From: Candidatus Uhrbacteria bacterium
GTDB lineage: Bacteria > Patescibacteriota > Patescibacteriia > UBA9934 > GWF2-40-263
Length of the DNA stretch: 64,000 bases
NCBI GenBank assembly: GCA_016188475.1
Contig: JACPHT010000008.1
Coordinates: 34,489 to 98,488, forward strand
Reading direction: 5' to 3'
In this document: piece by piece, positions 146 through 60,452 of the stretch
How the letters are laid out: every line of letters begins with the position of its first letter
How positions within the stretch are numbered: the first letter of the stretch is position 1
Translations under genes and position numbers: made by a program
Notes under the pieces: generated by a model
What the model saw: the letters and a program-made list of their open reading frames with translations, nothing else
Told to the model about the DNA's origin: nothing
The model's database searches: none

Positions 146-1279
146 TCATGTTTTCGGCGCCCCAATATCAGCGACGTTTACAACAGCTTGGATGCCGCTG
201 TTACGATCATTGAGCAGATTCGCGCTCTTCAATCGTTGTTCGATCACGAGTCGAGGTGACTCTGCATCCCCACCAGGGTAACGCGCAATAATGCGCGCGC
301 CAATCGCGAGTGCCATTGGTTTGCCGATTGAAACGTCTTCTGCAGAACGAAGTGTGCGACGCGGAGAAGGTCCACCCTGATCCCATGCCTGTTCGGTCGC
401 AAGAGTACGAATCTCGTTTGCGACTTGCACTATGTGAATCGCTTCAGTCTCGCTGATCTTTGTCTTACCAACAAGCCATGGAATTTCCCATTCCGGAGGC
501 GGATATGTGAACTCGTATTCTTCAACTCGATCGCCCATTGCAGAATCAAGCGACTGATTTCCGATGTATCCCGGTCCTACCGGATTGTCAGTCAGAATGA
601 AAATGAATCCTTTCAGACCGTCAATCACGATTGTTCCATCGGTTGTTGTGAACGAGTACTGACCGGTATGATCGAACAATGGATGGAACGGCCCCATGCT
701 GTGACCCATGCGCGAAAACTCATCCAAGCACACAATTGCTTTTGGCCACTGTTTGCTTGAGCGATGTTGTTCGATGAACAACATGAGGTCGCTAGGAACC
801 CACTTTGTCGAACCGTTTTCCGCTGACTCGGCCCCGAACAGATCCTTTGGTTTGAAAATTCCTGTTCCATCAACTTTGATGAACGGCACATCGCCGAGCA
901 CTTTCGCAAGAATCTGTGCGAACGTTGTTTTGCCAGAGCCTTTTGGACCGACAAGTCGAATGCTTCGACCAAAATGAATGTCAGCTTCGATAAGCACGAG
1001 AGTTTCCGGACGAATCCAGAAATCCGCGCCAAGACCTTTGCCATCAATCGAGATGATTTGCCGTTCAAGATGAACAACAACATGAGTTGGACAACGTGCA
1101 GGACCTTTCACTTCAATAAGGCTTGCCGCGAAACGCGCGTTTGCGCAGATTCGATCTGCGAACGATTCAAGATTTCTCACTTCGACTTTTCCCGCGCTCT
1201 TACCGCTTGCGAGAGTTGGTGTGACTGTTCCGTCTTGATCTACGAAAACGACTTCGTATTCTGTCCCGATTGTTGTCAT
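146..1279 (-). CDS. AAA+ ATPase, MoxR/AAA_5 (McrB/CbbQ-like) family with ~110-aa N-terminal extension
   Basis: Walker A LVGPKGSGKTT and Walker B IVCLDEF. C-terminal AAA-lid-like region. GC-rich codon usage unlike host genes. Same strand as and downstream of the retron-type RT. Confidence 0.6.
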   Translation of the reverse strand: MTTIGTEYEVVFVDQDGTVTPTLASGKSAGKVEVRNLESFADRICANARFAASLIEVKGPARCPTHVVVHLERQIISIDGKGLGADFWIRPETLVLIEADIHFGRSIRLVGPKGSGKTTFAQILAKVLGDVPFIKVDGTGIFKPKDLFGAESAENGSTKWVPSDLMLFIEQHRSSKQWPKAIVCLDEFSRMGHSMGPFHPLFDHTGQYSFTTTDGTIVIDGLKGFIFILTDNPVGPGYIGNQSLDSAMGDRVEEYEFTYPPPEWEIPWLVGKTKISETEAIHIVQVANEIRTLATEQAWDQGGPSPRRTLRSAEDVSIGKPMALAIGARIIARYPGGDAESPRLVIEQRLKSANLLNDRNSGIQAVVNVADIGAPKT

Positions 1280-1337
1280 GTTTCTGCCTTTCTAAACAGA
1301 TTTGAATGAACATCTCCTCACATCAAAATATTACACA

Positions 1338-1419
1338 TTGTCATTGCGAGCGACCAACGAGAGCGAAGCAATCTCTTCAAAAAAGAGATCTCTTCGTCGT
1401 CCGACTCCTCGCAATGACA
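1338..1419. repeat. Hairpin element with 12-bp inverted arms ttgtcattgcgag / ctcgcaatgaca and an internal gagatctct palindrome. A related copy lies at 25226-25294.
   Basis: Seen directly. The second copy has arms ttgtcatctcga / tcgagatgacaa and an internal gagagatctctc. Confidence 0.6.
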
Positions 1420-1581
1420 CAAGTAAAACCCTGGTGTAAAAAGCGGTGCCGACTCATAACGAATAGGCACCGCAGTAAAGATCAGCGCAATGGAAGGCGG
1501 CCACGATTACGGTCTCTGACGTAATCGTGGTTGACCCCGGAGCCAAGGGATCCGGGGTCAAAAGCGCGGGAGTATCCCACG

Positions 1582-2002
1582 CTCCCAACTCTCAAGTGCG
1601 TGTTGCACGCGCTCTTGACGAGTCAAGAACCATGGAAGGACGCACGGCTTTGAGGACAGGTCTTGCGAAGCGTCCGCAAAGTCGGCGCGCTGGGACGTAC
1701 ACGAAGTGGCCGTCCCAGTGCGAGTCCGAATGTGCGTCTGTCTTCAAACTCTCAAGCGCGTGTAACACGCGCTCTGATTAGAGTTTGTCTCCTACTCTTT
1801 CGAGTAGGATTAGGTTCAAGTTCAGCACAGAAACAGCACAATGGATAGCGGCCGAGTGACGCTGGACGCGAGTCCTCGAGTGGACAGTGTCACACGGTTG
1901 GACAATGGCGCCATAGCGAAGCGGTGCGCCAGCAGTCCAAAGCGAGAGAAAATCCCTCGTTCCAAACTCTCAAACGCGTGTTGCACGCGTTCTTGACGAG
2001 TC
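1582..2002. repeat. Three direct copies of a 43-bp unit, each itself an imperfect palindrome, at 1582-1624, 1742-1784 and 1960-2002.
   Basis: Unit: caaactctcaa-gcgcgtgt(t/a)(g/a)cacgcg-(c/t)tcttgac/tgagtc. Copies 1 and 3 differ at 2-3 positions. Spacers are ~117 and ~175 bp. Confidence 0.85.
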
Positions 2003-2010
2003 TTGATTGA

Positions 2011-3270
2011 TTATTCCGTTTCCTTAACGAACGAATACGCATGACCTTGACTTATGTCACGAGTTCCAATTCGGAACTGTGTTTTTGCTTTGATGTACAA
2101 CTCGCGGATCGAGCTCGGAAGCTTCTGGTCGTACACCATACTAACGAATCCAACTATCCCGACTAGCAAGCGATGTTCGCGCGTTGTCAAAGGCCACTCG
2201 CGAGCATAAAACTTGTCTGGTGAAAGGTTCGAGTCAAGACTGATTCCTCTTTTCCTGAATGCTACGACATCCTTTTCCATCTGTGCTTTAACAGCCTTGA
2301 GAGCTTCTTCATCACCAGATTGACGCTTGTCTGCAACCTCCAAGAGATTGTGCAGAATCGCGCGGAACTTATTCAACCGCGGTCGCGGAATCGTCAGCCG
2401 GCCGTCCTGATTCGGGATGATTCCCGTAACTTCAGGATACTTCGTTGTCCGTTCTTCGTCACCTTCAGCGCCATCACCAAAGTAAGAAACCTTCGTGCCC
2501 TGAATGGTCCAACCATCAGACCTCACAGCCTGACGAATTTTCTGACGAAGCTTTTTTGGTATCACTTCATCGCTTGAAGAGATTGTGAGATCGTCAACAA
2601 ACCGAGTGTACTTGTAAACTACTCCTTCAGTCGCAGAAGCTGATCGAAGAAGTTGCGAGATGTTTCGATCGACTTGTCCCAGCAGAACATTGAGCACTGC
2701 TGGAGAAGTTGGAAATCCCTGCGGAAGAACATCGTCAACGATGAGCAGATCAACGAAAGTCTCTGCCAGTCGTTTTCCATCCTGTTCTGGAAGACCAGTC
2801 ACAACAGTGATGTAACCAGTGAACGTTGGTCCGAAAATCGCGGAACATCGCTTGCGATTCACTGTCGGAAACGCGTCCTTGAGATCAAGAAGATAAAACG
2901 CTTTCCCGCCCACATGCGCGCGAGCGTTTGTCACGATACTCGTTCCAGGATGTGCCCCATGAACAGCCAAGTGAACCGGAATCCCTTGAATGAACTGCGT
3001 CAAAAGCGCGCGAAGAACTTTCTTGAGCGGATCTGACGGAGCGTGAATCGTCCTGTGTCCCTTTTTCTTGGGAATCTTGTGAATCGTCCACGCATTGCCA
3101 GATGCCCACAAAGCTGTTGTGGCTCTCCATTCTGCTGGATCGATTTTTAGGATTTGACACAAGACTTCTTCAAGTCGTGCGTCAAGAAGAAAAGAAATTG
3201 GTAACCTGCTTTGTTCTGCCATTGTCTCCCCCGTCTGTTTCAGACAGTTGAAGTAATTCCAACGAACCAA
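2011..3270 (-). CDS. Reverse transcriptase, retron-type. Likely true start is the M of MAEQSRLP at about 3222.
   Basis: Motif 1-2 KKGHRTIHAPSDPLKKV. NAxxH box (TNARAH) before YLLDLKDAFPTV. Motif 4 LPQGFPTSP. Motif 5 YTRFVDDLTIS (YxDD). VTG motif (YPEVTGIIP) about 65 aa after YxDD. Block-by-block similarity to my recollection of Ec86 RT. GC-rich. Confidence 0.8.
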   Translation of the reverse strand: MVRWNYFNCLKQTGETMAEQSRLPISFLLDARLEEVLCQILKIDPAEWRATTALWASGNAWTIHKIPKKKGHRTIHAPSDPLKKVLRALLTQFIQGIPVHLAVHGAHPGTSIVTNARAHVGGKAFYLLDLKDAFPTVNRKRCSAIFGPTFTGYITVVTGLPEQDGKRLAETFVDLLIVDDVLPQGFPTSPAVLNVLLGQVDRNISQLLRSASATEGVVYKYTRFVDDLTISSSDEVIPKKLRQKIRQAVRSDGWTIQGTKVSYFGDGAEGDEERTTKYPEVTGIIPNQDGRLTIPRPRLNKFRAILHNLLEVADKRQSGDEEALKAVKAQMEKDVVAFRKRGISLDSNLSPDKFYAREWPLTTREHRLLVGIVGFVSMVYDQKLPSSIRELYIKAKTQFRIGTRDISQGHAYSFVKETE

Positions 3271-26418: not shown

Positions 26419-27300
26419 ATGGCTCTGGTGAAGGAAGCGGAGGTCAAGAAAATCTTGACCGCATACAACGGTTCTGTGGACGAAGGATCGCAACTCAACG
26501 TCGACGAGGTCTGTGCGAAGTTGGCCAAGGCAGGCGGAGGTCTCTCGGCGGCGGCTAAGGAGATGTCCTACGAGGATATCGAAGGTGCCGGGATTCCGAA
26601 GGCGGTTGCGCGCGCGATCAGCAAGGTCTGGCGCGGCGACGGCGAGAAGCCGGCAAAGCTCGGGCCGGAAGTCCAGATCGGCGGAGTCGAAGGAACGTTC
26701 GAGGCCCTGGCATTCGCCATGGGCAACATAGGTGCTTTCGGCGACAAGCCGCTCCTCAAGGTCTACGAACCTCTCGGTCGCGACGACGTCACTGGCGAGC
26801 TTCGCAAGCGCTCAGGTGACAAACCGTTCATCGCGTTCAGTGACAAGCAGACGCTGACGGTCGATGTGGAAGCATCGTATGGGAACCTCCAGCTACTCAA
26901 GCAGGGCGTCGAAATCGGCACAAACACAGTGATCAACGGGAAGCTGACAGAGCTCTTCAGGGCTGGAGAGCTTCCTGATCTCGCACTTCCGATCTGCCCG
27001 GTTCACGGGTGCCATCTCATCGGGGATGGTGAGTTCTGCAAGGAATGCAACTTCAGTTGGTCCGGAGTTTCGACCGAGGTTCGCGAGCTTGCGTGGTGTC
27101 ACGTCCAGAACGTGCTCGCGGAAGTTCCTGGCTCGCAGGACGCGAGACTCAAGCAGATCCTCGCCGCTCTCAGCGACGCAAAGGACCAGTACTGGTCCTC
27201 GGCAACGCTCGAGCTCGAGAAACTCAAGGCAACTGGCCAGCCCATCGTGCTGGTCAAGCCGGTCAAGCGTCCCGGACGCTCGACTCCGTCCCGCCGCTAG
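26419..27300 (+). CDS. Hypothetical protein with HhH-like motif (DIEGAGIPKAVARAIS) and C4 zinc ribbon (CPVHGC...CKEC)
   Basis: Motifs seen by eye. GC-rich. First gene of the island. Confidence 0.5.
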   Translation: MALVKEAEVKKILTAYNGSVDEGSQLNVDEVCAKLAKAGGGLSAAAKEMSYEDIEGAGIPKAVARAISKVWRGDGEKPAKLGPEVQIGGVEGTFEALAFAMGNIGAFGDKPLLKVYEPLGRDDVTGELRKRSGDKPFIAFSDKQTLTVDVEASYGNLQLLKQGVEIGTNTVINGKLTELFRAGELPDLALPICPVHGCHLIGDGEFCKECNFSWSGVSTEVRELAWCHVQNVLAEVPGSQDARLKQILAALSDAKDQYWSSATLELEKLKATGQPIVLVKPVKRPGRSTPSRR

Positions 27301-27320
27301 TACGGCAAACTTCTTCACTT

Positions 27321-27350
27321 CCGTGATCCATCTGGGTCACGGATTTTTTG
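27321..27350 (+). terminator. Intrinsic terminator ccgtgatcc-atctgg-gtcacgg + T6
   Basis: Stem plus T-run directly after the 26419 gene stop. Confidence 0.6.
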
Positions 27351-27362
27351 TACACAAAACTC

Positions 27363-27391
27363 TTGACACATTTACGAAAATCACGTAAAAA
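27363..27391 (+). promoter_or_regulatory. Sigma70-type promoter TTGACA-N17-TAAAAA
   Basis: Same architecture as the promoters at 26306, 31006 and 33998. Confidence 0.55.
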
Positions 27392-27452
27392 ACCTTGTCC
27401 TGCGCCTTCTAATCCTGAAGGATGCTGGAAGTACAATAAAAGTGAGGAAAAC

Positions 27453-28619
27453 ATGTCTCTCTCAAGCCTTAAGTCAGAGATCATCTTCCCCTACTTTCAA
27501 TCAGTTGGGGACCTAGATCCAAATTCCGCGACCGATCGTGTTGCGACGGAAATTCTCAAATCCGGGGCCGGTGTCAAAGCAGTTGCCGCGTCAATCCAAG
27601 CTGAAGACCTTATTGGAACAGAGCTTCCGCTTGCAATCAGAAAAGCGCTAGCAATTCGCATCAGAGAAGACGCAATCGCGACAGTCGAAGTTACAACAGG
27701 CGACACGCGAAAGAATCTTCGTCCGGGATCGTTCGATGATGTGATCGGCCACGCAGACTTCAAACGTCTCATGTCAAACGCGATCACTGCCGCGCGCAAG
27801 CAAGGCGTTCCTCTTCGCCATATTCTCTTGAACGGTCCGCGCGGACTTGGCAAAACCACTCTCGCTCTTGTGATCGCAAACGAGCTAAAAGCAAAAGCGC
27901 GTTTGCTCGTTGGATCGCAATTACGAACACCGGTCGACATCACGAACGAGGTTCTGCGATGGGAAAAAGGGTCGGTCGTTTTCATTGACGAGATCCACGG
28001 CATGAGCCGTGCCGCTCAAGAAACGCTTTACAGCGTGATGGAAGACGGCCGCTTGCCAATTACCGAAAAAAGAAAAGGACACCAGACAAAGACGAGCGTT
28101 CCAGCGCCATCAATCACGATCATTGGCGCGACAACAAATCCGTCCAAGTTGCTGGAGCCTTTCCGAAATCGGTTCGGGTCAAAGTATGAACTCGGTTTCT
28201 ACTCGAACGACGAGATGAAAAAGATCGGACAACGATCAGCATCCATTCTCGGTCTGACGATCGAACCATCGGCTGTTCAAAAGCTTGTTGCGCACTGTCG
28301 CGACAATCCACGCACTCTCAACGAGTTCCTGCTCCAACTGAACGATCTGTCCATTGCTCAATCGTTATTGTCCGTCACAGTCGAACACGTTTCAGACCTT
28401 TTGAAACTCAACGGCTATGATGAACAGGGTTTGCGTCCTGAAGAACGTCGCTATGTGGAAGCGCTCAAAACGATCGGTGGAAGTGGCAGTCTCAAAACCA
28501 TAGCCGAGACGCTTGACATGGAAGTTTCAGAAGTCGAAGGAACGATCGAGCGATGGTTGGTGCGTAAAGGAATGATTCGCCGGACTCCAAAAGGCCGGCA
28601 GATCATAGAAAGGAGCTGA
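27453..28619 (+). CDS. RuvB-family AAA+ ATPase paralog with ~50-aa N-terminal extension
   Basis: Collinear with RuvB over its whole length: LRP...IGH...LLNGPRGLGKTTLALVIANEL, FIDEIHGMS, LYSVMEDG, IGATTNPS, PFRNRFG, C-terminal winged helix RTPKGRQI. SD gagga before ATG 27453. Confidence 0.7.
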   Translation: MSLSSLKSEIIFPYFQSVGDLDPNSATDRVATEILKSGAGVKAVAASIQAEDLIGTELPLAIRKALAIRIREDAIATVEVTTGDTRKNLRPGSFDDVIGHADFKRLMSNAITAARKQGVPLRHILLNGPRGLGKTTLALVIANELKAKARLLVGSQLRTPVDITNEVLRWEKGSVVFIDEIHGMSRAAQETLYSVMEDGRLPITEKRKGHQTKTSVPAPSITIIGATTNPSKLLEPFRNRFGSKYELGFYSNDEMKKIGQRSASILGLTIEPSAVQKLVAHCRDNPRTLNEFLLQLNDLSIAQSLLSVTVEHVSDLLKLNGYDEQGLRPEERRYVEALKTIGGSGSLKTIAETLDMEVSEVEGTIERWLVRKGMIRRTPKGRQIIERS

Positions 28620-28622
28620 GAA

Positions 28623-29765
28623 ATGGACTTTCCTGTTATTGTTCTAAAAACTGGAAAAGAGTCAATCCCGGACGGCCCTGCCGTAATCATAATCGCGAAA
28701 AACGGCAAGTTTCTCTTGAAGCGACTTGGAATAGTCGAGGCCGCGGTTCCGTACACAGACCAGATTTCAGGACTTGCCGAATACGAGACTTGGGCAGAGC
28801 TCAATGTTGAGAAAATTCCGTTCGAGATCTTCATCCAGGTCTTTCACTTCATGCGAACGATCTACAACAACAAGAAGACGGAATGCAATGTGATTCTGTT
28901 CTATCATCAAAAGGAAAAACAGTGGGCTGTTGTGGTTCCACCACAGATTGTCTCGCACAGCAGTGTGCACTATCAGGATGGTATCGCGGGAGCGAAAGAC
29001 GGATGGATCAAAGTTGGAACACTCCACAGTCACTGCGACTTTTCAGCAGGACATAGCGGTGGCGATCACAGAGACGAAGAGCACTTCGACGGAATCCACA
29101 TCACGCTCGGTCACGTTGACAAAGACGAACCCACATTGAGTGTAAGTCTTGTCGTCAACGGCATGCGGTTCATGAAAACTCCGCAAGAATACATTGCTGG
29201 AGTCAAACGTGTTGAAGAAAAAGAAATGGTCCAGGAATACGAAACAAAGTGGGTTGATGGCGATGATACCGCTGACGAAAGTCACGCAGAGCAAGAAGAG
29301 TCTTTGGTGACTAGCATGTGCACATTAGTGACTAGATTTCTACCGAAGTTCGGTGGTGGGGAGATCGGCGGTACTAGTAACACATATGTCAAACCCAGTT
29401 GGCCTACCAAGGTCTACAAGTACAGACCCCAAAAGCGAATCGAAGTTCCAACCAAAATGGTGGAACGCACAGTCTCCAGACTTGTGTTCGACTTTCCTGA
29501 AGGAAAAAAGGTGGAGGATTATGAATTTCCGCAGGAATGGTTGGACAATGTGAAGACATCGTACGAGTTGCACAAGATGGAACATCCTGTTCGTCCAAGA
29601 CGGAGAAGAAAATTCCGTGATGCGGGCGTTTCAAAAAGTAACGACCATCAACAAGAGTCAATAAACAATGAGGAAGAAGAAACAGCTTACACATGTATGA
29701 CCGACGATGAACTTGCGGAGATAATCTCAAGGCATCAACGTGGATGCCAAGAAGGAGAAGAATGA
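28623..29765 (+). CDS. JAB/MPN (JAMM) metallopeptidase-domain protein
   Basis: Exact JAMM motif HSHCDFSAGHSGGD (HxHx7Sx2D) at 29025-29066, with an upstream Glu. SD ggag before the ATG. Only a 3-nt gap after the RuvB-like stop. Confidence 0.7.
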   Translation: MDFPVIVLKTGKESIPDGPAVIIIAKNGKFLLKRLGIVEAAVPYTDQISGLAEYETWAELNVEKIPFEIFIQVFHFMRTIYNNKKTECNVILFYHQKEKQWAVVVPPQIVSHSSVHYQDGIAGAKDGWIKVGTLHSHCDFSAGHSGGDHRDEEHFDGIHITLGHVDKDEPTLSVSLVVNGMRFMKTPQEYIAGVKRVEEKEMVQEYETKWVDGDDTADESHAEQEESLVTSMCTLVTRFLPKFGGGEIGGTSNTYVKPSWPTKVYKYRPQKRIEVPTKMVERTVSRLVFDFPEGKKVEDYEFPQEWLDNVKTSYELHKMEHPVRPRRRRKFRDAGVSKSNDHQQESINNEEEETAYTCMTDDELAEIISRHQRGCQEGEE

Positions 29766-29766
29766 G

Positions 29767-30534
29767 ATGAAGGAACTGAACATCGTGGTAGTCGGAATAG
29801 GAGGTGTTGGAAGCGCTCTTGTTCCAAAGCTCTGTCGCTATTGTCAGCACATCAAGCCCCAGGTTCCTGTCAGTCTGGTTCTGATCGACGGAGACTTGTA
29901 CGAACAGAACAACGCGAATCGACAGTCGTTTCATCGGTTCGGAAACAAAGCAGAGGTTACGGTTGAAGCTCTCGCGCCTCAATTCGACCGAATTCAACTC
30001 TCGGCAATAGCCGAGTTCCTCAAACCCGACAACATTGACTTCATCATCGCTGAAGGCTCGATCGTTTTCCTGTGCGTTGACAACAACACATCAAGAAAGA
30101 TGGTCGATGATTTCACACACAAGTTCAAGAACATTGTCGTCATCTGCGGCGGAAACGACATGACTGACGGAAACGTACAGATCTACATCCGTCGCAAAGG
30201 CAAGGACATAACAGCATCACTCGCTGACATTCATCCAGAAATCGCTTCGCCACAAGGCAAGGCTCCGTATCAAATGAACTGCGAAGAGCTAGCGATGGCA
30301 TCATCTCCACAGCTTTTCTTCGCCAACGATTTGGTCAGCGCTCTGATGTGTCTGGTCTTCTACCAGATAATCGAAGTCAAGGACTTTCTTGACAAACCTA
30401 GGTTCGGTGAGCTTTACTTTGACATGCTACTAGGTCGCGTTGAATCTGTTGTTCGAAATCCTGTTGTCAAAGTGGCACAGGTTGATCGAAAAAAGTGTAA
30501 GGGCAAGTCCAAGCCAGCAAAGAAAGGAAGGTAG
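29767..30534 (+). CDS. E1-like ubiquitin-activating enzyme of the minimal ThiF/MoeB type. The track's alternative GTG start is 29740.
   Basis: Rossmann VVVGIGGVGS. DGDLYEQNNANRQ (DxDxxExxNxNRQ) at 29887-29925. CVDNNTSR. Catalytic-Cys loop NCEELAMASSPQ. SD ggagaag. Start is 1 nt after the JAB stop. Confidence 0.7.
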   Translation: MKELNIVVVGIGGVGSALVPKLCRYCQHIKPQVPVSLVLIDGDLYEQNNANRQSFHRFGNKAEVTVEALAPQFDRIQLSAIAEFLKPDNIDFIIAEGSIVFLCVDNNTSRKMVDDFTHKFKNIVVICGGNDMTDGNVQIYIRRKGKDITASLADIHPEIASPQGKAPYQMNCEELAMASSPQLFFANDLVSALMCLVFYQIIEVKDFLDKPRFGELYFDMLLGRVESVVRNPVVKVAQVDRKKCKGKSKPAKKGR

Positions 30535-44359: not shown

Positions 44360-45640
44360 ATGAAAATGACAAAACGTTATTTATCGTTGCTTGTGATTGG
44401 AACGCTTATTTGGTTTGGATCACATACAACACTCACACACGCATCTGAAGAAAACAACATTAAACTTTCGACAAGTTCCGTTAGAAGCGTCGCTTATAAC
44501 GGAACAAGCTCAGAGAATAACGTGGTGGTTTTCTTTAACGAAGCTTGTCAGGATTGCGCTGAACTCGTGAAAAAAACTTATCCTGAATTTTTCGCAGAGT
44601 ATGGATACACACTCGAACTTAAAGATTATATCAATGACAAAACAAATCGCACTGAATTGACACAAATGAACAAAGCTTGGGACGTGCCTTTCTCACTTCA
44701 AAGCCATATCGAAACATTTGTTAACGATCGGCTTCTGATCGGCGGGCATGTGCCGCTTCCAATGATAAAATTCTTGCTTGAAAATCCTGATTCGTACCAA
44801 AAACTTCTTGTGTATCAAGATGAAATGCACGGGGATGCGATGAATTATCAAGCGTGGAATTTCTCCGGCGATATAAAAACGTACAAGATCGATGAACCGA
44901 TCACAACTTATCTGGCAGAACAGCCAACAGTTTCCGAATCAACACAGATCAAAACTCCGCAAGGATTTTGGTCATTGTTTGCCGTTATAAGCACGTCCGC
45001 ATTTTTGGATGGACTCAATCCGTGCGCGTTTGCTGTGTTGTTATTCTTTATCGCGTTTTTGTTCACAATGAAAAAAACAAAACGCACTGTTTGGAAAATG
45101 GGCGGAGTCTATATTGCGGCAATTTATCTCGCTTACTTATTGATTGGAGTTGGACTGGCTCAAGCATTTCTTCTCACGGGTTCTCCACATTTGATGGCGC
45201 GTATCGGATCGTGGCTTGTAATCGCGCTTGGAGTAATTCAAGTGATAGGAATTATCTTTCCAACTTTCCCGATTCACCTTCGTATTCCGCTTGATACAAA
45301 AGCCACGCTTGAACACTGGATGTATCGCGCCACAATTCCAGCCGCGTTTATCGGAGGATTTCTTGTTGGGCTTTGCACGTTTCCATGCTCTGGAGGAATT
45401 TATGTTGCGATCATCGGAATGCTTTCAAGTCAGACCACTGCGTGGTCAGGATTTTTCTGGATGCTTTGGTATAACGTGATGTTTGTAGCACCACTCATAA
45501 TACTTTTGTTGATCGCGGCAAATCCTCGCATGACTGAACGCATGCAACTACTCGAACGCGCTGAATCAAAATATGTTAAACTCTTGATTGGAGTATTTAT
45601 GATTCTCCTTGGCGCCATCATTCTATTTTTCTTCACATAA
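44360..45640 (+). CDS. Thioredoxin-like domain (CQDC) fused to CcdA/DsbD-family transmembrane thiol-disulfide transporter
   Basis: FFNEACQDCAELV. Then LNPCAFAVLLFF, a CcdA-like Cys in TM. Confidence 0.55.
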   Translation: MKMTKRYLSLLVIGTLIWFGSHTTLTHASEENNIKLSTSSVRSVAYNGTSSENNVVVFFNEACQDCAELVKKTYPEFFAEYGYTLELKDYINDKTNRTELTQMNKAWDVPFSLQSHIETFVNDRLLIGGHVPLPMIKFLLENPDSYQKLLVYQDEMHGDAMNYQAWNFSGDIKTYKIDEPITTYLAEQPTVSESTQIKTPQGFWSLFAVISTSAFLDGLNPCAFAVLLFFIAFLFTMKKTKRTVWKMGGVYIAAIYLAYLLIGVGLAQAFLLTGSPHLMARIGSWLVIALGVIQVIGIIFPTFPIHLRIPLDTKATLEHWMYRATIPAAFIGGFLVGLCTFPCSGGIYVAIIGMLSSQTTAWSGFFWMLWYNVMFVAPLIILLLIAANPRMTERMQLLERAESKYVKLLIGVFMILLGAIILFFFT

Positions 45641-45674: not shown

Positions 45675-45845
45675 CTGTAGTAGCAGTTGTGCCATGTTGG
45701 AGTGAGTCAAGGAGGAGTAAAGAAGCCAACTGCTTGGCTTCGTACCTCCGAGACGGGTTGAACGATGTCTGGCTGAAAGCCAGACCGGACAACACCTACG
45801 GCGAAGAGTCCGTTGGCACGGAAACATGGTACGACTGCTACTAAT
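45675..45845. repeat. ~170-nt element closed by a 20-bp terminal stem (agtagcagttgtgccatgtt / aacatggtacgactgctact), containing the gtctggc-tgaaa-gccagac hairpin. A short relative lies at 49912-49985.
   Basis: Shared 3' block CGGCGAAGAGTCCGTTGGCACGGARACATGGTAC. Confidence 0.65.
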
Positions 45846-45857
45846 AACCAATGACTT

Positions 45858-46298
45858 ATGATTTATCTTCCTCTAATTTTAATTCCAGCGATCTTCGTCC
45901 TCTTCACTTTTCTAAAACCAAAAGTTAAAGGTATTGAATTGTGTGGGGTCTGCGCCGCTGTTAGCATCACTTGGCTGATTCTTTTGATTTCTGTTTTTGT
46001 TCTAATCGTTCCAGTTTCACCACTCCTCATCGGAATTCTAATGGGAATGAGCGTGATCGGCGGACTTTCAAAAGCAGAACCGTGGCTCAAAAAACAAAAT
46101 GTACAACATATTCCGCTTATAAAAATTATCGTGATACTCGGCGGACTTTATACTGTTTTGTTCTTGATTGAACAGCAATGGCGTTTGCTGATAATCACAA
46201 TTATAATTTCGATTTTCGCACTCATTATAATTACGCTTCTCATGCAAAAAAGATCGCATAGACATTTGGAAGGACAGAAACATTTAGATTGTTGTTAA
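45858..46298 (+). CDS. Membrane protein (4 TM), hypothetical
   Basis: Hydrophobic profile. Confidence 0.4.
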   Translation: MIYLPLILIPAIFVLFTFLKPKVKGIELCGVCAAVSITWLILLISVFVLIVPVSPLLIGILMGMSVIGGLSKAEPWLKKQNVQHIPLIKIIVILGGLYTVLFLIEQQWRLLIITIIISIFALIIITLLMQKRSHRHLEGQKHLDCC

Positions 46299-46514: not shown

Positions 46515-46763
46515 CTACGGACGATGAGTTCGCGAATCGTTTGACGAATCAGGAAGCGATCTGCTCCAATTGAGCATTAAGGTCATCGTCCCGAGGACAA
46601 AAGGCAACAGAAACGGGATATGTTTTCCGGACTCTCCGTAAAACAAATACCAGATGTCATATCCCAGAAACACGAGCGTGAACAGAGCCAGAATCCTTAC
46701 AACGATTTTCATCGTTCCTCCTTTCCGAAAACCAATCTTACTACTATTTTGAGATTTTGTCAA
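46515..46763 (-). CDS. Small membrane protein, hypothetical
   Basis: ORF with 2 TM. Confidence 0.3.
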   Translation of the reverse strand: MTKSQNSSKIGFRKGGTMKIVVRILALFTLVFLGYDIWYLFYGESGKHIPFLLPFVLGTMTLMLNWSRSLPDSSNDSRTHRP

Positions 46764-47928
46764 TCACAAGCATAGCTGTTCCAAGCGCTGTTCCATCATA
46801 AATTTTCTGTTGTAAAACAGGGATATTTGAGATTTCCTTCTGAATATTAACCACCAATCCATCTCGCGAGATTCCACCATCAACCACCAATTCGATCGGA
46901 CGAGTTGGTAGTTTTTTTATTAACCGATCAACATCAAGAGCGAGCGAGCGAAGATAAATCCGAAGTTTGTTCGGACTAGAAAGTAAGCTCGTTACTTTCT
47001 CACCGCTTTTTTCAATTTTGCTTTCCAAAGCAAAACTGACTCCTTTTCGCGTTGGCACAAGAGTCGTAAAAAAATTCAGGTGTAATACAAATCGTTTTAT
47101 TGTCTGCACAACAAACACACCAGTGCCGTAAGTAACTTTTGTGACGTTTGCGCGCGAAACTGGCTGAGAACGAACAGCCGCGTAAGCGCTCGCTTGTTGA
47201 TCTCCACAAACAGCCAAAACAGGAATTGAAAATCCAAGAATATCTTTTTGTAAATTTCCAAAATTTGAGCGAGAAGAAAAAACTTTTGGCAAAATGTCTT
47301 TATGTATTTGAAAAAGCGCGAGCAATTCTTCACTCCATTTTCGTTTTCGAATATCAAACAACAAAGTTCGCGACGCGTTTGTTTCATCTGTGACATGAGG
47401 ATGATTTTCACATAAATTCCAAATCAACCACGAATCAATCGTACCAAACGCTAAATCCTCGCCAGAAACATTTTGTAAAATCCATCTAATTTTTGAAGCG
47501 GAAAAATATGCGTCAGACTTAAGACCGGTTCTCTCACGAATAAAACGTCCGTGAAACTTTTTTAATTTGGCACAAAACGCGCTGGTTCGATTGTCTTCCC
47601 AACCAATCACAGGATAAACTGGTTTCCCTGTTTTTCGATTCCAAACAACCGTCGCTTCTCGTTGATTTGTGATTCCGATTCCTAGAATTTTTTTTGGATC
47701 AACATGCGCATTTTTGACAGCTTTACGCAAAACTAAACGCGAGACTCGAAAAATCTCATTCGGGTCTTGTTCAACCCACCCTTTTTTCGGACGATTCTTG
47801 CTTATTTTTTTATACGACCTCGATTTGATTTGACATTTGTTGTCAAACACAAAAGCCTTGATGCCAGTTGTTCCAACATCAAGAACTAGAACGTAGAAGT
47901 TCTTCAAAGACCTTTTTTGGTTTTTCAT
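46744..47928 (-). CDS. FGGY-family carbohydrate kinase (glycerol kinase-like)
   Basis: N-terminal LVLDVGTTGIKAFVF. FGGY N-terminal and C-terminal domains. Confidence 0.6.
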   Translation of the reverse strand: MKNQKRSLKNFYVLVLDVGTTGIKAFVFDNKCQIKSRSYKKISKNRPKKGWVEQDPNEIFRVSRLVLRKAVKNAHVDPKKILGIGITNQREATVVWNRKTGKPVYPVIGWEDNRTSAFCAKLKKFHGRFIRERTGLKSDAYFSASKIRWILQNVSGEDLAFGTIDSWLIWNLCENHPHVTDETNASRTLLFDIRKRKWSEELLALFQIHKDILPKVFSSRSNFGNLQKDILGFSIPVLAVCGDQQASAYAAVRSQPVSRANVTKVTYGTGVFVVQTIKRFVLHLNFFTTLVPTRKGVSFALESKIEKSGEKVTSLLSSPNKLRIYLRSLALDVDRLIKKLPTRPIELVVDGGISRDGLVVNIQKEISNIPVLQQKIYDGTALGTAMLVIDKISK

Positions 47929-48772
47929 GGTTGTTTATAATTCGATCAAGTGAAAGAAGAAACAGTAAATGCTGTTTTGAATCACTGACAAGTTGCAAAA
48001 CAGGCGCGATCGAATGACAGCCTTCGCTCGTTTTAACACACTCACCAGCGATCGCGATCTCGCGTCCAGTTTCGCGATTTCGCGAATCAGGACTCATCGC
48101 TGTTGCAAGAAAATCCCCGTTACCTGCCGCTCCAGCAACAATTCGTTCATCTCCGCCAAGAAGTCGTGCGATGATATTCATCTCGTCCATGGCTTTTGCC
48201 GCAAGCCATCCTTTTCCATTCCATCCCCAACCAAGTCCTTCTGCGATTCCAAGCCCAACCGCATAGATATTTTTCAAAACAGAAGCAAGCGCGACTGTTC
48301 GAGTATCGCTCACACTTTCAAGTCGAACAGAACTTCCTTGAAACAGTGGCTGTAAATTTGAAAAAACAATTTGATCTTTTGCGCCAAGAACACCAACACC
48401 TGGAAGATCGGCTATCAATTCCTCTGCAAGTATCGGACCTCCCAAAACTCCAAAAGGCTGACCTTTTGACAAACATTCATCCAAAACAGCATCCATTGTT
48501 TTGAGTGTTTTTTCTTCCAAACCTTTTGCAAGAGAGATGATAATTGTTTTCTTGTTTATGAATTTCGAAATTTCTTTCGAGACTTCACGAACAACCCATG
48601 ATGGAACACAAAGAAAAACTATTTCAGTTCCGTTTAAGGACTCTTCAAGCGAGATAGGCTTTTCCATTTTGGATGTATCTTTATCCCAAACGCGAATTTC
48701 CGCACGATCACCAATAACGTGCATGAGTGCGCTTCCAATTTCGCCTATTCCAATGAATGTAACTTGAATCAT
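47879..48772 (-). CDS. gpsA: NAD(P)-dependent glycerol-3-phosphate dehydrogenase-like
   Basis: N-terminal Rossmann FIGIGEIGSA. Size ~300 aa. Confidence 0.55.
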   Translation of the reverse strand: MIQVTFIGIGEIGSALMHVIGDRAEIRVWDKDTSKMEKPISLEESLNGTEIVFLCVPSWVVREVSKEISKFINKKTIIISLAKGLEEKTLKTMDAVLDECLSKGQPFGVLGGPILAEELIADLPGVGVLGAKDQIVFSNLQPLFQGSSVRLESVSDTRTVALASVLKNIYAVGLGIAEGLGWGWNGKGWLAAKAMDEMNIIARLLGGDERIVAGAAGNGDFLATAMSPDSRNRETGREIAIAGECVKTSEGCHSIAPVLQLVSDSKQHLLFLLSLDRIINNHEKPKKVFEELLRSSS

Positions 48773-49875
48773 ATTCTTTTCCCCACTGCCTCTTTTATTG
48801 AATTAAATCCATCGCGACGCAAAAGTTCAACAAGCCCGCGATTGATTTGTCCGATAAGTTGCGGGCCTTGAAAAATCATTCCTGTTGCAAGTTGAACAAG
48901 CGATGCTCCGCGTAGTATCTTCTCATAAGCGTCTTCTGCTGAAAAGATGCCGCCTGTGCCAATTAGAATCAACCTGTCGCCAACTCGTTTATAAAGATAC
49001 TCGATAAGATCATTCGATTTATCAAAAACCGGCCGACCGCTTATTCCGCCTTTTTCAGACGGAACAACATCTGCAGAATTTATTTTTTGACTGTCGCGAC
49101 GCTTTGTCAGGTTGGACAAAATAAGCCCTTGTACTTGATGCATGAGAGCGACATCAACGAGTTTATCAATTTCTTCAAAAGAAAGATCAACCGGCATTTT
49201 CAAAAAGATCGGCTGACGCGCGTGAAGCAAATCTGTTGCGCACAAAAGTTGTTCAAGAAGTTCTGGTTTGGTGAAAGGTTCTCCGCCAAAAGCGTTTGGA
49301 CAACTGATGTTTAGAGTAATGTAATCCGCGATATCCAAAAATGCTTCCATTGCTTTAACATAATCAGCAATGCCGACTTGAACATCACACGTTTTTTGAC
49401 AATTTGTTTTTGCAACACTCACTCCAATCGGAATTCGAAACTTTTTGGTGAATAACCTTTCACGGATAACTTCGCAACCGTCATTTTTCAATCCAAAATA
49501 AACAATCAATGCTTCACTTTTTGGCAATCGCCATAAACGTGGTTTTGAATTTCCTTCGCACGGCTCTCCAGTTACTGATCCAATTTCTGCAAAACCAAAA
49601 CCAACATCCGGAAGAATATCAACTAACAATCCGTCTTTATCAAAACCAGCTGTTAGTCCAACTGGATTTGGAAAATCAGTTCCGCAAACAGTTTGACGCA
49701 AAGATGGATTTTCATAGCACCAAAGCAAACGTGCGATTTTTCTTGCCCACTTCCGCTTACCTATCCAATTTCCAGCAATCGTAATGCTGTCATGAACAGT
49801 CTCCGGATCAAACCTAAAAGCAATTGGTTTGAAAATATGACGATAAACGAAGGATTGAAAATCAGCAAAAAACAT
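48769..49875 (-). CDS. pyrD: Dihydroorotate dehydrogenase
   Basis: GLTAGFDKDG. TIM-barrel DHODH pattern. Confidence 0.75.
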   Translation of the reverse strand: MFFADFQSFVYRHIFKPIAFRFDPETVHDSITIAGNWIGKRKWARKIARLLWCYENPSLRQTVCGTDFPNPVGLTAGFDKDGLLVDILPDVGFGFAEIGSVTGEPCEGNSKPRLWRLPKSEALIVYFGLKNDGCEVIRERLFTKKFRIPIGVSVAKTNCQKTCDVQVGIADYVKAMEAFLDIADYITLNISCPNAFGGEPFTKPELLEQLLCATDLLHARQPIFLKMPVDLSFEEIDKLVDVALMHQVQGLILSNLTKRRDSQKINSADVVPSEKGGISGRPVFDKSNDLIEYLYKRVGDRLILIGTGGIFSAEDAYEKILRGASLVQLATGMIFQGPQLIGQINRGLVELLRRDGFNSIKEAVGKRI

Positions 49876-49911: not shown

Positions 49912-49985
49912 GAGCGGTTTGTGCCATGTCGTAGTGAACAACGGCGAAGAGTCCGTTGGCACGGAGACATGGTACAAACCGCTCC
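49912..49985. repeat. Short hairpin member of the 45675 family (stem gagcggtttgtgccatgtc / gacatggtacaaaccgctc)
   Basis: Seen directly. Confidence 0.65.
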
Positions 49986-50002: not shown

Positions 50003-50593
50003 CTAAACTGGCGTTTTATAACACACCAAGCATCTTGCCGCGTACTCTGCATCCCCTACAACATATTGTTCATCACCTGGAATCAAACGCTGTGAACGTG
50101 TCGCCACTCTTTCATTGCATGCAGTACAAAGCGCGTAAACTTGAACAATTTCATCAGCAAGCGCGAGCAATTCTGGCATTGAAGGAAACGGCCGTTCCTG
50201 AAAATCAAGATTGAGTCCTGCAACAATCACCTGTTTTCCAGAACGCACAAGTTTTAACACAACCGACGCTAATCCGTCTGAAAAAAAATGAGCCTCGTCG
50301 ATTCCGACGACGCGCACTGATTGAGTATGTTCCAAAATCTCTTCAGCATTTTTAATAATCATTGCTGGTAAAAACGAACCCTCACGCGAGCGAATCTCTT
50401 GGCCAGTTCGAGTATCGACGGCTGGTTTGAAAACACGAACTTCCAATTTAGCGATTTTCGCTATTGTCAACCGACGGATCAACTCCGCACTTTTGCCTGA
50501 AAACATTGGACCGGTAATAACGACGAGGCCTGGTGAGAACATAAAGTTAGAAGCAAGAGGTAAGAAAAAAGAAGAAAGAAGCTGAAGAAGCAA
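50003..50593 (-). CDS. tdk: Thymidine kinase
   Basis: P-loop GPMFSGKS. C-terminal Zn ribbon CxxC...CxxC. Confidence 0.85.
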   Translation of the reverse strand: MLLQLLSSFFLPLASNFMFSPGLVVITGPMFSGKSAELIRRLTIAKIAKLEVRVFKPAVDTRTGQEIRSREGSFLPAMIIKNAEEILEHTQSVRVVGIDEAHFFSDGLASVVLKLVRSGKQVIVAGLNLDFQERPFPSMPELLALADEIVQVYALCTACNERVATRSQRLIPGDEQYVVGDAEYAARCLVCYKTPV

Positions 50594-59586: not shown

Positions 59587-59662
59587 GCCGTCGTAGCTCA
59601 GCTGGTAGAGCACATCCATGGTAAGGATGGGGTCTCGGGTTCAATTCCCGACGACGGCTCCA
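59587..59662 (+). tRNA. tRNA-Thr (anticodon GGT)
   Basis: Acceptor gccgtcg/cgacggc perfect. Anticodon loop atggtaa. CCA encoded. Confidence 0.8.
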
Positions 59663-59740
59663 GAACACTTCATAAATACGAAGTGTTTTATTGTTGACAA
59701 ATGGCTAAAGCCAAAGTTTTATGTTACACTAACATTAATT

Positions 59741-60376
59741 ATGAGTTATCCAAAAGCAATTAAAAAATCAGAACAACAAAAAGTGATCAATCTATACAGT
59801 ATTAAACTTTGGAGTGCTAAAAAAATTGCAGAACATTTTGGCATAGGCCTTCAAACAGTATATAGATTTCTACGAGACAAAAAAGTCTCGAGACGAGGAC
59901 CAAGAGAAGCGTCCGAAGCTTTCTTTAAACACAAACCGGAATCATTCAAAATAAAACATAGATTGAATAAAAAAGAAGAGGAATTAAAAATTGCTGGAAT
60001 AATGCTTTATTGGGCGGAGGGTTCAAAAGGATATTCTGTGGTGGATTTTGTGAATAGTGATCCTTTCATGTGTCTCATTTTTATGAGATTTTTGCGTGAA
60101 GTGTGTGGAATTGACGAACGGAAACTAAGAGGGTATATTTACTGCCATCCAGGACAAGATTTGAAAAAAATAACTAACTTTTGGAGTGGAAGCTTAAAAA
60201 TTCCAGTTAAACGATTTTCAAAGCCTTATATTAGGAAACCTGTTGAAGGCAAAACGAACAAACGACCTGCTCGCATGCAATATGGTGTCGTTCATATTCG
60301 TTACGGAGACAAAAAGTTACTTAATCAAATTTTAGTTTGGATTCAGGAATACTTGAAATGTTTCGTGGGTCGGTAG
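59741..60376 (+). CDS. HTH + LAGLIDADG-like (single-motif) endonuclease-like protein; 3' end overlaps tRNA-Tyr by 10 nt
   Basis: HTH LWSAKKIAEHFGIGLQTVYRFL. LYWAEGSKG...FVNSDPFMCLIFMRFLREVCG parallels my recollection of I-CreI LAGFVDGDGS...FQVTQKTQRRWFLDKLVDEIG. Confidence 0.35.
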   Translation: MSYPKAIKKSEQQKVINLYSIKLWSAKKIAEHFGIGLQTVYRFLRDKKVSRRGPREASEAFFKHKPESFKIKHRLNKKEEELKIAGIMLYWAEGSKGYSVVDFVNSDPFMCLIFMRFLREVCGIDERKLRGYIYCHPGQDLKKITNFWSGSLKIPVKRFSKPYIRKPVEGKTNKRPARMQYGVVHIRYGDKKLLNQILVWIQEYLKCFVGR

Positions 60377-60452
60377 CGAAGCGGTTAAACGCACGACACT
60401 GTAAATGTCGCGGCTTATGCCTTCGTAGGTTCGAATCCTACCCGGCCCACCA
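60367..60452 (+). tRNA. tRNA-Tyr (anticodon GTA) with long variable arm
   Basis: Acceptor gggtcgg/ccggccc. Anticodon loop ctgtaaa. Variable arm cggcttatgccttcg. CCA encoded. Confidence 0.75.

Follow-up and report, generated by a model that had tools for sequence, protein, structure and literature searches.

The window, the whole 64-kb stretch of DNA analysed here, comes from Candidatus Uhrbacteria of the candidate phyla radiation and carries two related hairpins with a type A apex, both on the plus strand (Table 1). The long copy, of 166 nt, lies between genes for membrane proteins of 426 and 146 residues. Its 21-nt arms are 90% complementary as DNA; both mismatches are G·T, hence G·U pairs in the RNA of the plus strand. 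It folds with -87.5 kcal/mol (z = -9.2 against shuffles), and a profile of long forms (nhmmer) scores 191 bits at this site. Near-identical long forms occur at L003:9459-9658(-) and L011:592-763(+) of related contigs, labelled here by L numbers. The mini copy, a 73-nt hairpin, lies between tdk and pyrD, both of which are on the other strand. Its 19-nt arms are 95% complementary, its fold reaches -49.9 kcal/mol (z = -8.9 against shuffles) and its covariance-model score is 100.5 bits. A 34-nt block common to both, GGCGAAGAGTCCGTTGGCACGGA, is found exactly twice in the window, with none expected from shuffles. No third copy emerged in the 64 kb from looser patterns, an unfiltered covariance-model scan or the nhmmer profile, and no promoter- or terminator-like site was found at either copy.

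An earlier note on this DNA had described an element of about 170 nt closed by a terminal stem of about 20 bp, a block recurring in a mini version, and an intergenic position for both. All of this agrees with our analysis; other details need amending. The arms that it called matching do pair in each copy, but their outer 8-9 bp differ in sequence between the two. The interior hairpin gtctggc-tgaaa-gccagac is present, yet its loop, described as GNRA-like, is UGAAA and not GNRA. Finally, the mini copy had been placed upstream of tdk: as this gene is on the minus strand, the hairpin in fact follows tdk and precedes pyrD by 36 nt.

Table 1 Features of the window, in order of position.
Feature	Position	Strand	Remarks
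AAA_5 ATPase	146-1279	-	
Block with GC content 0.51	146-3270		about 0.42 elsewhere
68-nt direct repeat	1557-1624 / 1935-2002	-	84% identical
Retron-type reverse transcriptase	2011-3270	-	Pfam RVT_1
Block with GC content 0.48-0.52	26419-30534		
RuvB-like AAA protein	27348-28619		
Match to PRTRC-system protein A	28623-29765		weak
ThiF-family protein	29740-30534		
Protein of about 900 aa	31082-33790		no Pfam or NCBIfam match
Protein of about 900 aa	33962-36682		no Pfam or NCBIfam match
426-aa membrane-protein gene	44360-45640	+	
Long copy, whole	45678-45843	+	
Long copy, P1 5' arm	45678-45698	+	TAGTAGCAGTTGTGCCATGTT; inverted-repeat search
Long copy, internal loop 5' side GGA (3x3, purine-rich), P2 5' strand GTG, unpaired A	45699-45705	+	
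Long copy, optional 92-nt module in place of the mini form's 3 nt (ACA)	45706-45797	+	two hairpins, P3 and P4
Long copy, module hairpin P3	45706-45754	+	AAGGAGG paired to CCUCC
Long copy, module hairpin P4	45755-45796	+	loop UGAAA
Long copy, local covariance-model match	45794-45816		spans P5
Long copy, apical hairpin P5, ACGG-CGAAGAGT-CCGT, then TGG	45798-45816	+	
Long copy, P2 3' strand CAC and internal loop 3' side GGA	45817-45822	+	
Long copy, P1 3' arm	45823-45843	+	AACATGGTACGACTGCTACTA; inverted-repeat search
146-aa membrane-protein gene	45858-46298	+	
Glycerol-kinase-like ORF and gpsA	46744-47928 / 47879-48772	-	50-nt overlap between the start of the ORF and the end of gpsA
pyrD	48769-49875	-	
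Mini copy, whole	49912-49984	+	
Mini copy, 5' arm	49912-49930	+	
Mini copy, internal loop GTA	49931-49933	+	
Mini copy, P2 GTG	49934-49936	+	
Mini copy, P5	49939-49958	+	loop CGAAGAGT at 49945-49952
Mini copy, P2 CAC	49960-49962	+	
Mini copy, internal loop GGA	49963-49965	+	
Mini copy, 3' arm	49966-49984	+	
tdk	50003-50593	-	
tRNA gene	59587-59659		
252-aa ORF	59618-60376		resolvase-type HTH_7 domain
tRNA gene	60367-60449		

The window holds several other features. Beside the reverse transcriptase, whose best NCBIfam match (retron St85, 136 bits) is below cut-off, the same strand continues with about 730 nt of non-coding DNA containing the direct repeat, followed by the AAA_5 ATPase; together they look like a retron or defence reverse-transcriptase locus with a non-coding RNA region. 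A link between this enzyme and the hairpins was considered and rejected, as it lies 42 kb away and nothing connects them. The second GC-rich block may be a PRTRC-type island. One of the two adjacent proteins of about 900 residues is 74% identical to its orthologue in L013 and the other only 30% identical to that same protein, so they may be distant paralogues. The glycerol-kinase-like ORF contains a full FGGY_N and a weak, partial FGGY_C domain; the same arrangement with gpsA in L013, L021 and L024 identifies it as a feature of the lineage and not a frameshift. The HTH_7 ORF is bracketed, and slightly overlapped, by the two tRNA genes.

The basic unit of the family is about 73 nt long. Its terminal stem, P1, of 19-21 bp leads to a 3x3 purine-rich internal loop, the short stem P2, a 2x1 loop and the apical hairpin. 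The internal loop places 5'-GNA opposite 5'-GGA or GAA, with AAA in L002a. P2 has 3 bp, GUG/CAC or, in other copies, GGG/CCC (U-A to G-C at pair 28-54). The apical hairpin, of 6-7 bp, exists as type A, CAACGG-CGAAGAGU-CCGUUG, and type B, CAGCGG-CGACAGU-CCGAUG, as well as in mixed A/B forms. Two optional modules can reside within the unit. A two-hairpin module of 92-93 nt takes the place of the ACA just 5' of the apical hairpin: it is 92 nt long in the window and in L003c, with two differences between them, and 93 nt long and nearly identical in L011b, embedded in tgt, where P4 shows a compensatory C-G to U-A change. The other module is an additional 40-nt GC-rich hairpin, placed after P2 in L003b and L003c.

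Directly upstream of a mini element (L003:1560-1640) we also noticed two conserved GC-rich hairpins, GCGGGGTC-CCTT-GACCCCGC and GCGGGGTG-TGGG-CACCCCGC. Both are present in L004, L005, L008 and L012, and the second one alone in L006, L007 and L009. The outer flanks of these loci are unrelated; the pair may thus be a further module travelling with the element.

Copies outside the window were sought with the 20-mer GAAGAGTCCGTTGGCACGGA in species-representative genomes and in metagenomes. The genomes yielded one true locus, L002, in the MAG 'bacterium DeMMO2_27'; another match, L001, was discarded as a chance occurrence inside a gene. Ten loci came from the metagenomes, and all of them contain the full hairpin of about 75 nt. 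Trained on the 20-mer loci, a covariance model detected additional copies, more diverged, on these contigs. PyrD of the window is 100% identical to a protein of a Candidatus Uhrbacteria bacterium; other contigs, retrieved by way of PyrD and Tgt homologues, contributed still more copies. The earlier note had proposed a genome-wide copy count; in the contig fragments covered here, there are about 30 copies in about 330 kb, orthologous ones included, and the related copies are in groundwater contigs. Density is uneven: there are six copies in the 26.6 kb sampled of the DeMMO2_27 contig (L002 and L028), three in L003 (10.3 kb) and two in the window, and none in L013 (13.5 kb; PyrD 88% identical), L014-L017 (48 kb; PyrD 67-68% identical) or L031 (11.5 kb).

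The neighbours are housekeeping genes: dnaJ, tgt, hrcA, atpD/atpC, secA, hpf, mreB, rplL and pyrD. The hairpins occupy tight spacers, 4-18 nt past stop codons or 6-17 nt ahead of start codons, and their orientation relative to the flanking genes is mixed (about five co-oriented, about four antisense). Blastn found no copies in phage and plasmid collections, and two scans of viral contigs returned only chance matches in coding DNA, so we reject a phage or plasmid origin. As a separate observation, a CIRCE operator (TTAGCACTC-N9-GAGTGCTAA) overlaps a TTGACA-17-TATAAT promoter upstream of hrcA (L010:8352-8420, L028:4859-4941); this canonical promoter indicates that these bacteria use standard sigma-70-type promoters.

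We measured covariation on 13 distinct mini copies. Standard pairs fill 98.1% of all pair cells; P1 is 97.5% paired, and 13 of its 19 pairs are changed on both sides. None of 500 shuffles reaches the observed values, and shifted registers drop to 30-40% pairing. The outermost 8-10 bp of the arms differ between copies and covary, reading for example AGTAGCAG, GAGCGG, GGAGCAG, GCGAAGCC or GGGCCGAC. This extends to copies inside an ORF: those in tgt of L028, L029 and L011 have very different arms, each of them paired. Conservation is much stronger in the apex and the 92-nt module than in the arms; for the apex it is inflated by the exact 20-mer, through which 12 copies were found. On the apex-sense strand, G·U pairs outnumber A·C by 15 to 4, a bias that is suggestive and not to be read as a probability because the copies are related. 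It holds even where the apex-sense strand is antisense to the host mRNA. In DNA palindromes, quasi-palindrome mutagenesis through fold-back template switching can create double 'compensatory' changes in a single step. As this could operate here, covariation is no proof of function as RNA.

Among relatives whose PyrD is 81-88% identical to that of the window, the element is absent, found in another spacer or present with an inverted apex. L013 (PyrD 88%) has no copy at either window site, and its tdk|pyrD spacer measures 39 nt against 127 nt in the window. L021 (also 88%) is empty at tdk|pyrD; it has a copy at pyrD|gpsA and another that precedes the orthologue of the 146-aa gene and lies on the other strand from it. 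L027 (81%) keeps a tdk|pyrD copy in the window's orientation, with a type B apex, and L024-L026 (87%) keep one with an inverted apex. Similarly, of two contigs from the same sample with closely similar Tgt proteins, L029 has a copy in tgt and L031 does not. On these grounds the element can be dismissed as a riboswitch or leader, whether of pyrD or of the 146-aa gene, as relatives do without it or have it flipped.

One inversion lies at the PP2C|hrcA spacer. Between L028 and L010, flanks and arms are about 95% identical there and the central 35 nt are reverse-complemented. The same central 35 nt are inverted at a second orthologous site, tdk|pyrD, when the window and L027 are compared with L024. 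Recombination between the arms would be the simplest cause. Modules are exchanged at orthologous sites as well: L003c, a long form with the GC hairpin, and L008b, a mini form, both precede the same glycosyltransferase gene by 6-7 nt, and their flanks are about 92% identical. In tgt, too, a long form (L011) and short forms (L028, L029) share one orthologous site. Inspection of the flanks of about 20 copies revealed neither a direct repeat nor a conserved dinucleotide; filled and empty sites are too diverged for base-by-base alignment, so a target duplication of 1-2 nt may have gone unseen.

One site lies inside a protein-coding gene. The L011 long form is contained in tgt, whose reading frame of 412 codons is intact; residues 171-226 of this Tgt have no counterpart in solved Tgt structures, which align on both sides. 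Orthologues down to 68% identity carry GTMSPGHRTVAAVPSDMAP, the translated mini form, confirmed in DNA for L028 and L029, and others have nothing at the insertion point or a partial deletion. The embedded module of 93 nt adds a net 90 nt and so keeps the frame, as opposed to 92 nt, or a net 89 nt, in the two intergenic long forms. Since the short form is common to many tgt orthologues and the long one is confined to one contig, the mini form is old in tgt and the long form derived. Across all copies, 69 stop-free frames are observed against 41.6 expected, counting copies that are not independent.

In addition, a decayed copy at L028:16040-16130, with an intact 3' arm and apex and a lost 5' arm, overlaps the predicted start of an ABC-transporter gene. 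The called N-terminus (MTNERLLHVSGSTDSSPLFPP...) is largely translated element, and this gene call is probably too long. Similar N-terminal over-extensions concern secA in L007, a glycosyltransferase in L003 and gpsA in L021. Such hairpins can therefore mislead gene callers into N-terminal extensions and spurious ORFs; they can also break metagenome assemblies.

Altogether, we favour with moderate confidence the view that both hairpins are copies of a palindromic, largely selfish repeat family, new for these bacteria and resembling the RPE and ERIC repeats; it is filed with them by analogy and not by sequence homology. Like that class in its behaviour, it consists of short sequences in many copies with a stable hairpin, located at non-coding sites and in frame within intact ORFs.

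The main competing explanation sees in them cis-acting RNA elements of polycistronic mRNA, kept for the host as processing or stability signals: the 20-bp stem with its purine-rich loop could serve, for instance, as a site of the RNase III type or as an obstacle to 3' exonucleases. Correia and ERIC repeats have been credited with a role of this kind in mRNA processing or stability. Wherever both flanks are reliable, the copy does sit in a short spacer, usually between co-directional genes; P1, about two helical turns long, is strongly maintained, its stem forms in either orientation, and analogous repeats with a role in mRNA stability are described in the literature (PMC3184786). We nevertheless find this explanation unlikely, given that close relatives dispense with the element at the same spacers and that one copy is placed inside a coding sequence. 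Moreover, the wobble bias stays with the apex-sense strand even if the mRNA is the other strand, as for the window's mini copy and the L028 tgt copy, and a purely structural double-stranded signal does not need a conserved apex sequence. Small RNAs transcribed on their own, or protein-binding RNAs, stabilized by the long stem and exposing the apex as a protein site or pairing seed, seem quite improbable. They would account for the one-strand G·U bias, for an apex and module highly conserved across contigs with unrelated flanks, and for the strong covariation, which is not specific to RNA in a DNA palindrome. The internal loop could form tandem G·A pairs, and the C-G-closed GAAGA loop resembles a GNRA-like pentaloop; this last resemblance is not robust, as the loops of the second, type B apex are GACA, GAUA and AACA. 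Against such RNAs speak the short distances, only 4-40 nt, that separate the copies from adjacent genes, the missing promoter and terminator near either window copy, the apex inverted at two orthologous loci and the in-frame copy in tgt.

Comparison with known RNAs points the same way. The Rfam search that the earlier note had proposed produced no matching family: at the gathering score, Rfam 15 identified only tRNAs in the window and in L002-L012, and permissive scans of both elements gave nothing but sub-threshold noise from eukaryotic miRNA, snoRNA and lncRNA families. The pairing scheme fits neither SRP RNA domain IV, RNase P and 5S rRNA, nor the K-turn Kt-7 (which shares GGCGAAGA) and boxB, nor the hammerhead, twister and hairpin ribozymes and known riboswitches; single-copy housekeeping RNAs are ruled out by the multicopy status. 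A classical MITE, that is, a deletion derivative of an insertion sequence mobilized by a DDE transposase, with shared terminal inverted repeats and target duplications, is hardly credible. The family is indeed small, non-coding, palindromic, repeated, polymorphic between relatives and present in long and short forms, but the outer arms vary and covary from copy to copy, leaving no common terminal inverted repeat, and no inspected copy is flanked by direct repeats. Searches of selected ORFs with Pfam and NCBIfam identified no transposase in the window or the roughly 330 kb of related loci. Besides, the long form carries hairpins and not the remnant of a gene. The MITE proposal of the earlier note made the short form an internal-deletion derivative; in tgt, the one case that can be polarized, the order is the reverse. 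Of its two proposals, an RNA family or a MITE, the multicopy and mobile-like character and the long and short forms are retained, and both the plain RNA gene and the classical MITE are set aside.

A selfish palindromic repeat, our preferred reading, behaves as non-autonomous DNA that settles in short spacers within operons, can stay in frame within an ORF and is gained, lost and remodelled between close relatives. The arms would drive inversion of the apex by recombination, and gene conversion between copies would move modules and swap apex types, which would explain both kinds of exchange. Complementarity of the arms may be kept by selection on the folded single strand or by fold-back template switching. 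As the wobble pairs are strand-biased and the apex is conserved, we favour a hairpin intermediate folded from one specific single strand: new copies would be seeded through it, with a putative trans-acting enzyme recognizing the apex. Within a transcript, a copy would also form an RNA stem of about 20 bp and may affect mRNA processing as a side effect. Against mobility, the window and the related loci revealed no mobilizing enzyme, target-site duplication or conserved end sequence. The family does not result from a recent burst, as copies within one contig differ and some orthologous ones, such as those in tgt, are old. Individual copies could be under host-level selection.

Neither the conservation of apex and module nor the excess of G·U on the apex-sense strand is predicted by pure junk DNA. 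We put forward, as a distinctly speculative extension, that the repeat is the substrate of a dedicated putative machine reading the folded apex-sense strand through the conserved internal loop and apical hairpin. It could be a hairpin-specific single-stranded-DNA recombinase or nuclease, or an RNA-binding or reverse-transcribing enzyme, and would invert, convert and copy the element. If true, such a system would represent a novel kind of mobile or recombining element and give tractable access to the spread of RPE-type repeats.

In the candidate phyla radiation, bacterial genomes measure about 1 Mb; they contain very little non-coding DNA, and few mobile elements have been recognized in them. 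A palindromic repeat reaching one copy per 4-5 kb, and in frame in the essential-type Tgt, would parallel the situation in Rickettsia, which suggests that elements of this kind settle again and again in reduced genomes that depend on a host. At orthologous sites, the copies differ in presence, in the orientation of the apex and in the gain of a module; these are clean natural experiments on their maintenance and spread.

Several known systems invite comparison. Integron attC sites have R''/R' cores (RYYYAAC / GTTRRRY) at the base of the stem, a single orientation and a place in tandem cassette arrays. The repeat, with a variable stem base devoid of such cores, is dispersed among housekeeping genes in both orientations, and attC was rejected. 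REP/BIME-RAYT and IS200/IS605 systems work through the hairpin of one DNA strand and include non-autonomous, extragenic elements; a strand-biased tolerance of G·T of this type fits the 15:4 wobble bias. REPs, in contrast, are 20-40 nt long with a conserved 5' GTAG and usually form inverted pairs near a RAYT gene. With units of at least 73 nt, single copies, no conserved flanking tetranucleotide and no Y1 gene seen, the repeat does not belong with them. IS200/IS605 ends, which insert by a fixed tetra- or pentanucleotide, were rejected for want of these defining features: no such sequence was found, and no Y1 transposase was seen. As Wilson and Sharp reportedly described in 2006, ERIC elements exist in shorter and longer versions, owing to internal indels at fixed positions. 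ERIC (enterobacterial repetitive intergenic consensus) or IRU repeats resemble the present family as imperfect palindromes in transcribed intergenic spacers, in either orientation, with copy numbers that vary strongly between related genomes. There is no sequence similarity, and in-frame copies of ERIC within ORFs have not been reported. Small repeats, ERIC among them, are co-transcribed and can influence how stable the mRNA is (PMC3184786). In Photorhabdus and Xenorhabdus, repeats of the ERIC type show terminal inverted repeats as well as TA target duplications (PMC3184786), neither of which is seen in the Uhrbacteria repeat. Correia elements of Neisseria (CREE/NEMIS) likewise combine many co-transcribed palindromic copies, short and long variants and presence or absence between close strains (PMC3184786); their conserved 26-bp terminal inverted repeats, TA duplications, IHF sites and promoters have no equivalent here.

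RPEs, the palindromic elements of Rickettsia (Ogata et al. 2000, summarized in PMC1166351 and PMC3184786), are small repeats able to invade coding as well as non-coding DNA (PMC1166351). With about 100-150 bp, they too populate reduced genomes in many copies, both between genes and in frame in ORFs, where the host protein stays intact and stop codons are depleted; neither family has a known transposase or mechanism of spread. RPEs belong to Alphaproteobacteria, and the Uhrbacteria repeat to a different phylum, Patescibacteria. Its unit is shorter (73 nt) and combines a conserved apex with variable, covarying arms, and both apex inversion and module gain are documented at orthologous sites. It has one ORF site (tgt) and one decayed copy at a gene start, against 85 RPEs within ORFs in R. 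felis. As phylum and architecture differ, and as the comparison with RPEs was one of descriptions, the kinship with them is one of analogy.
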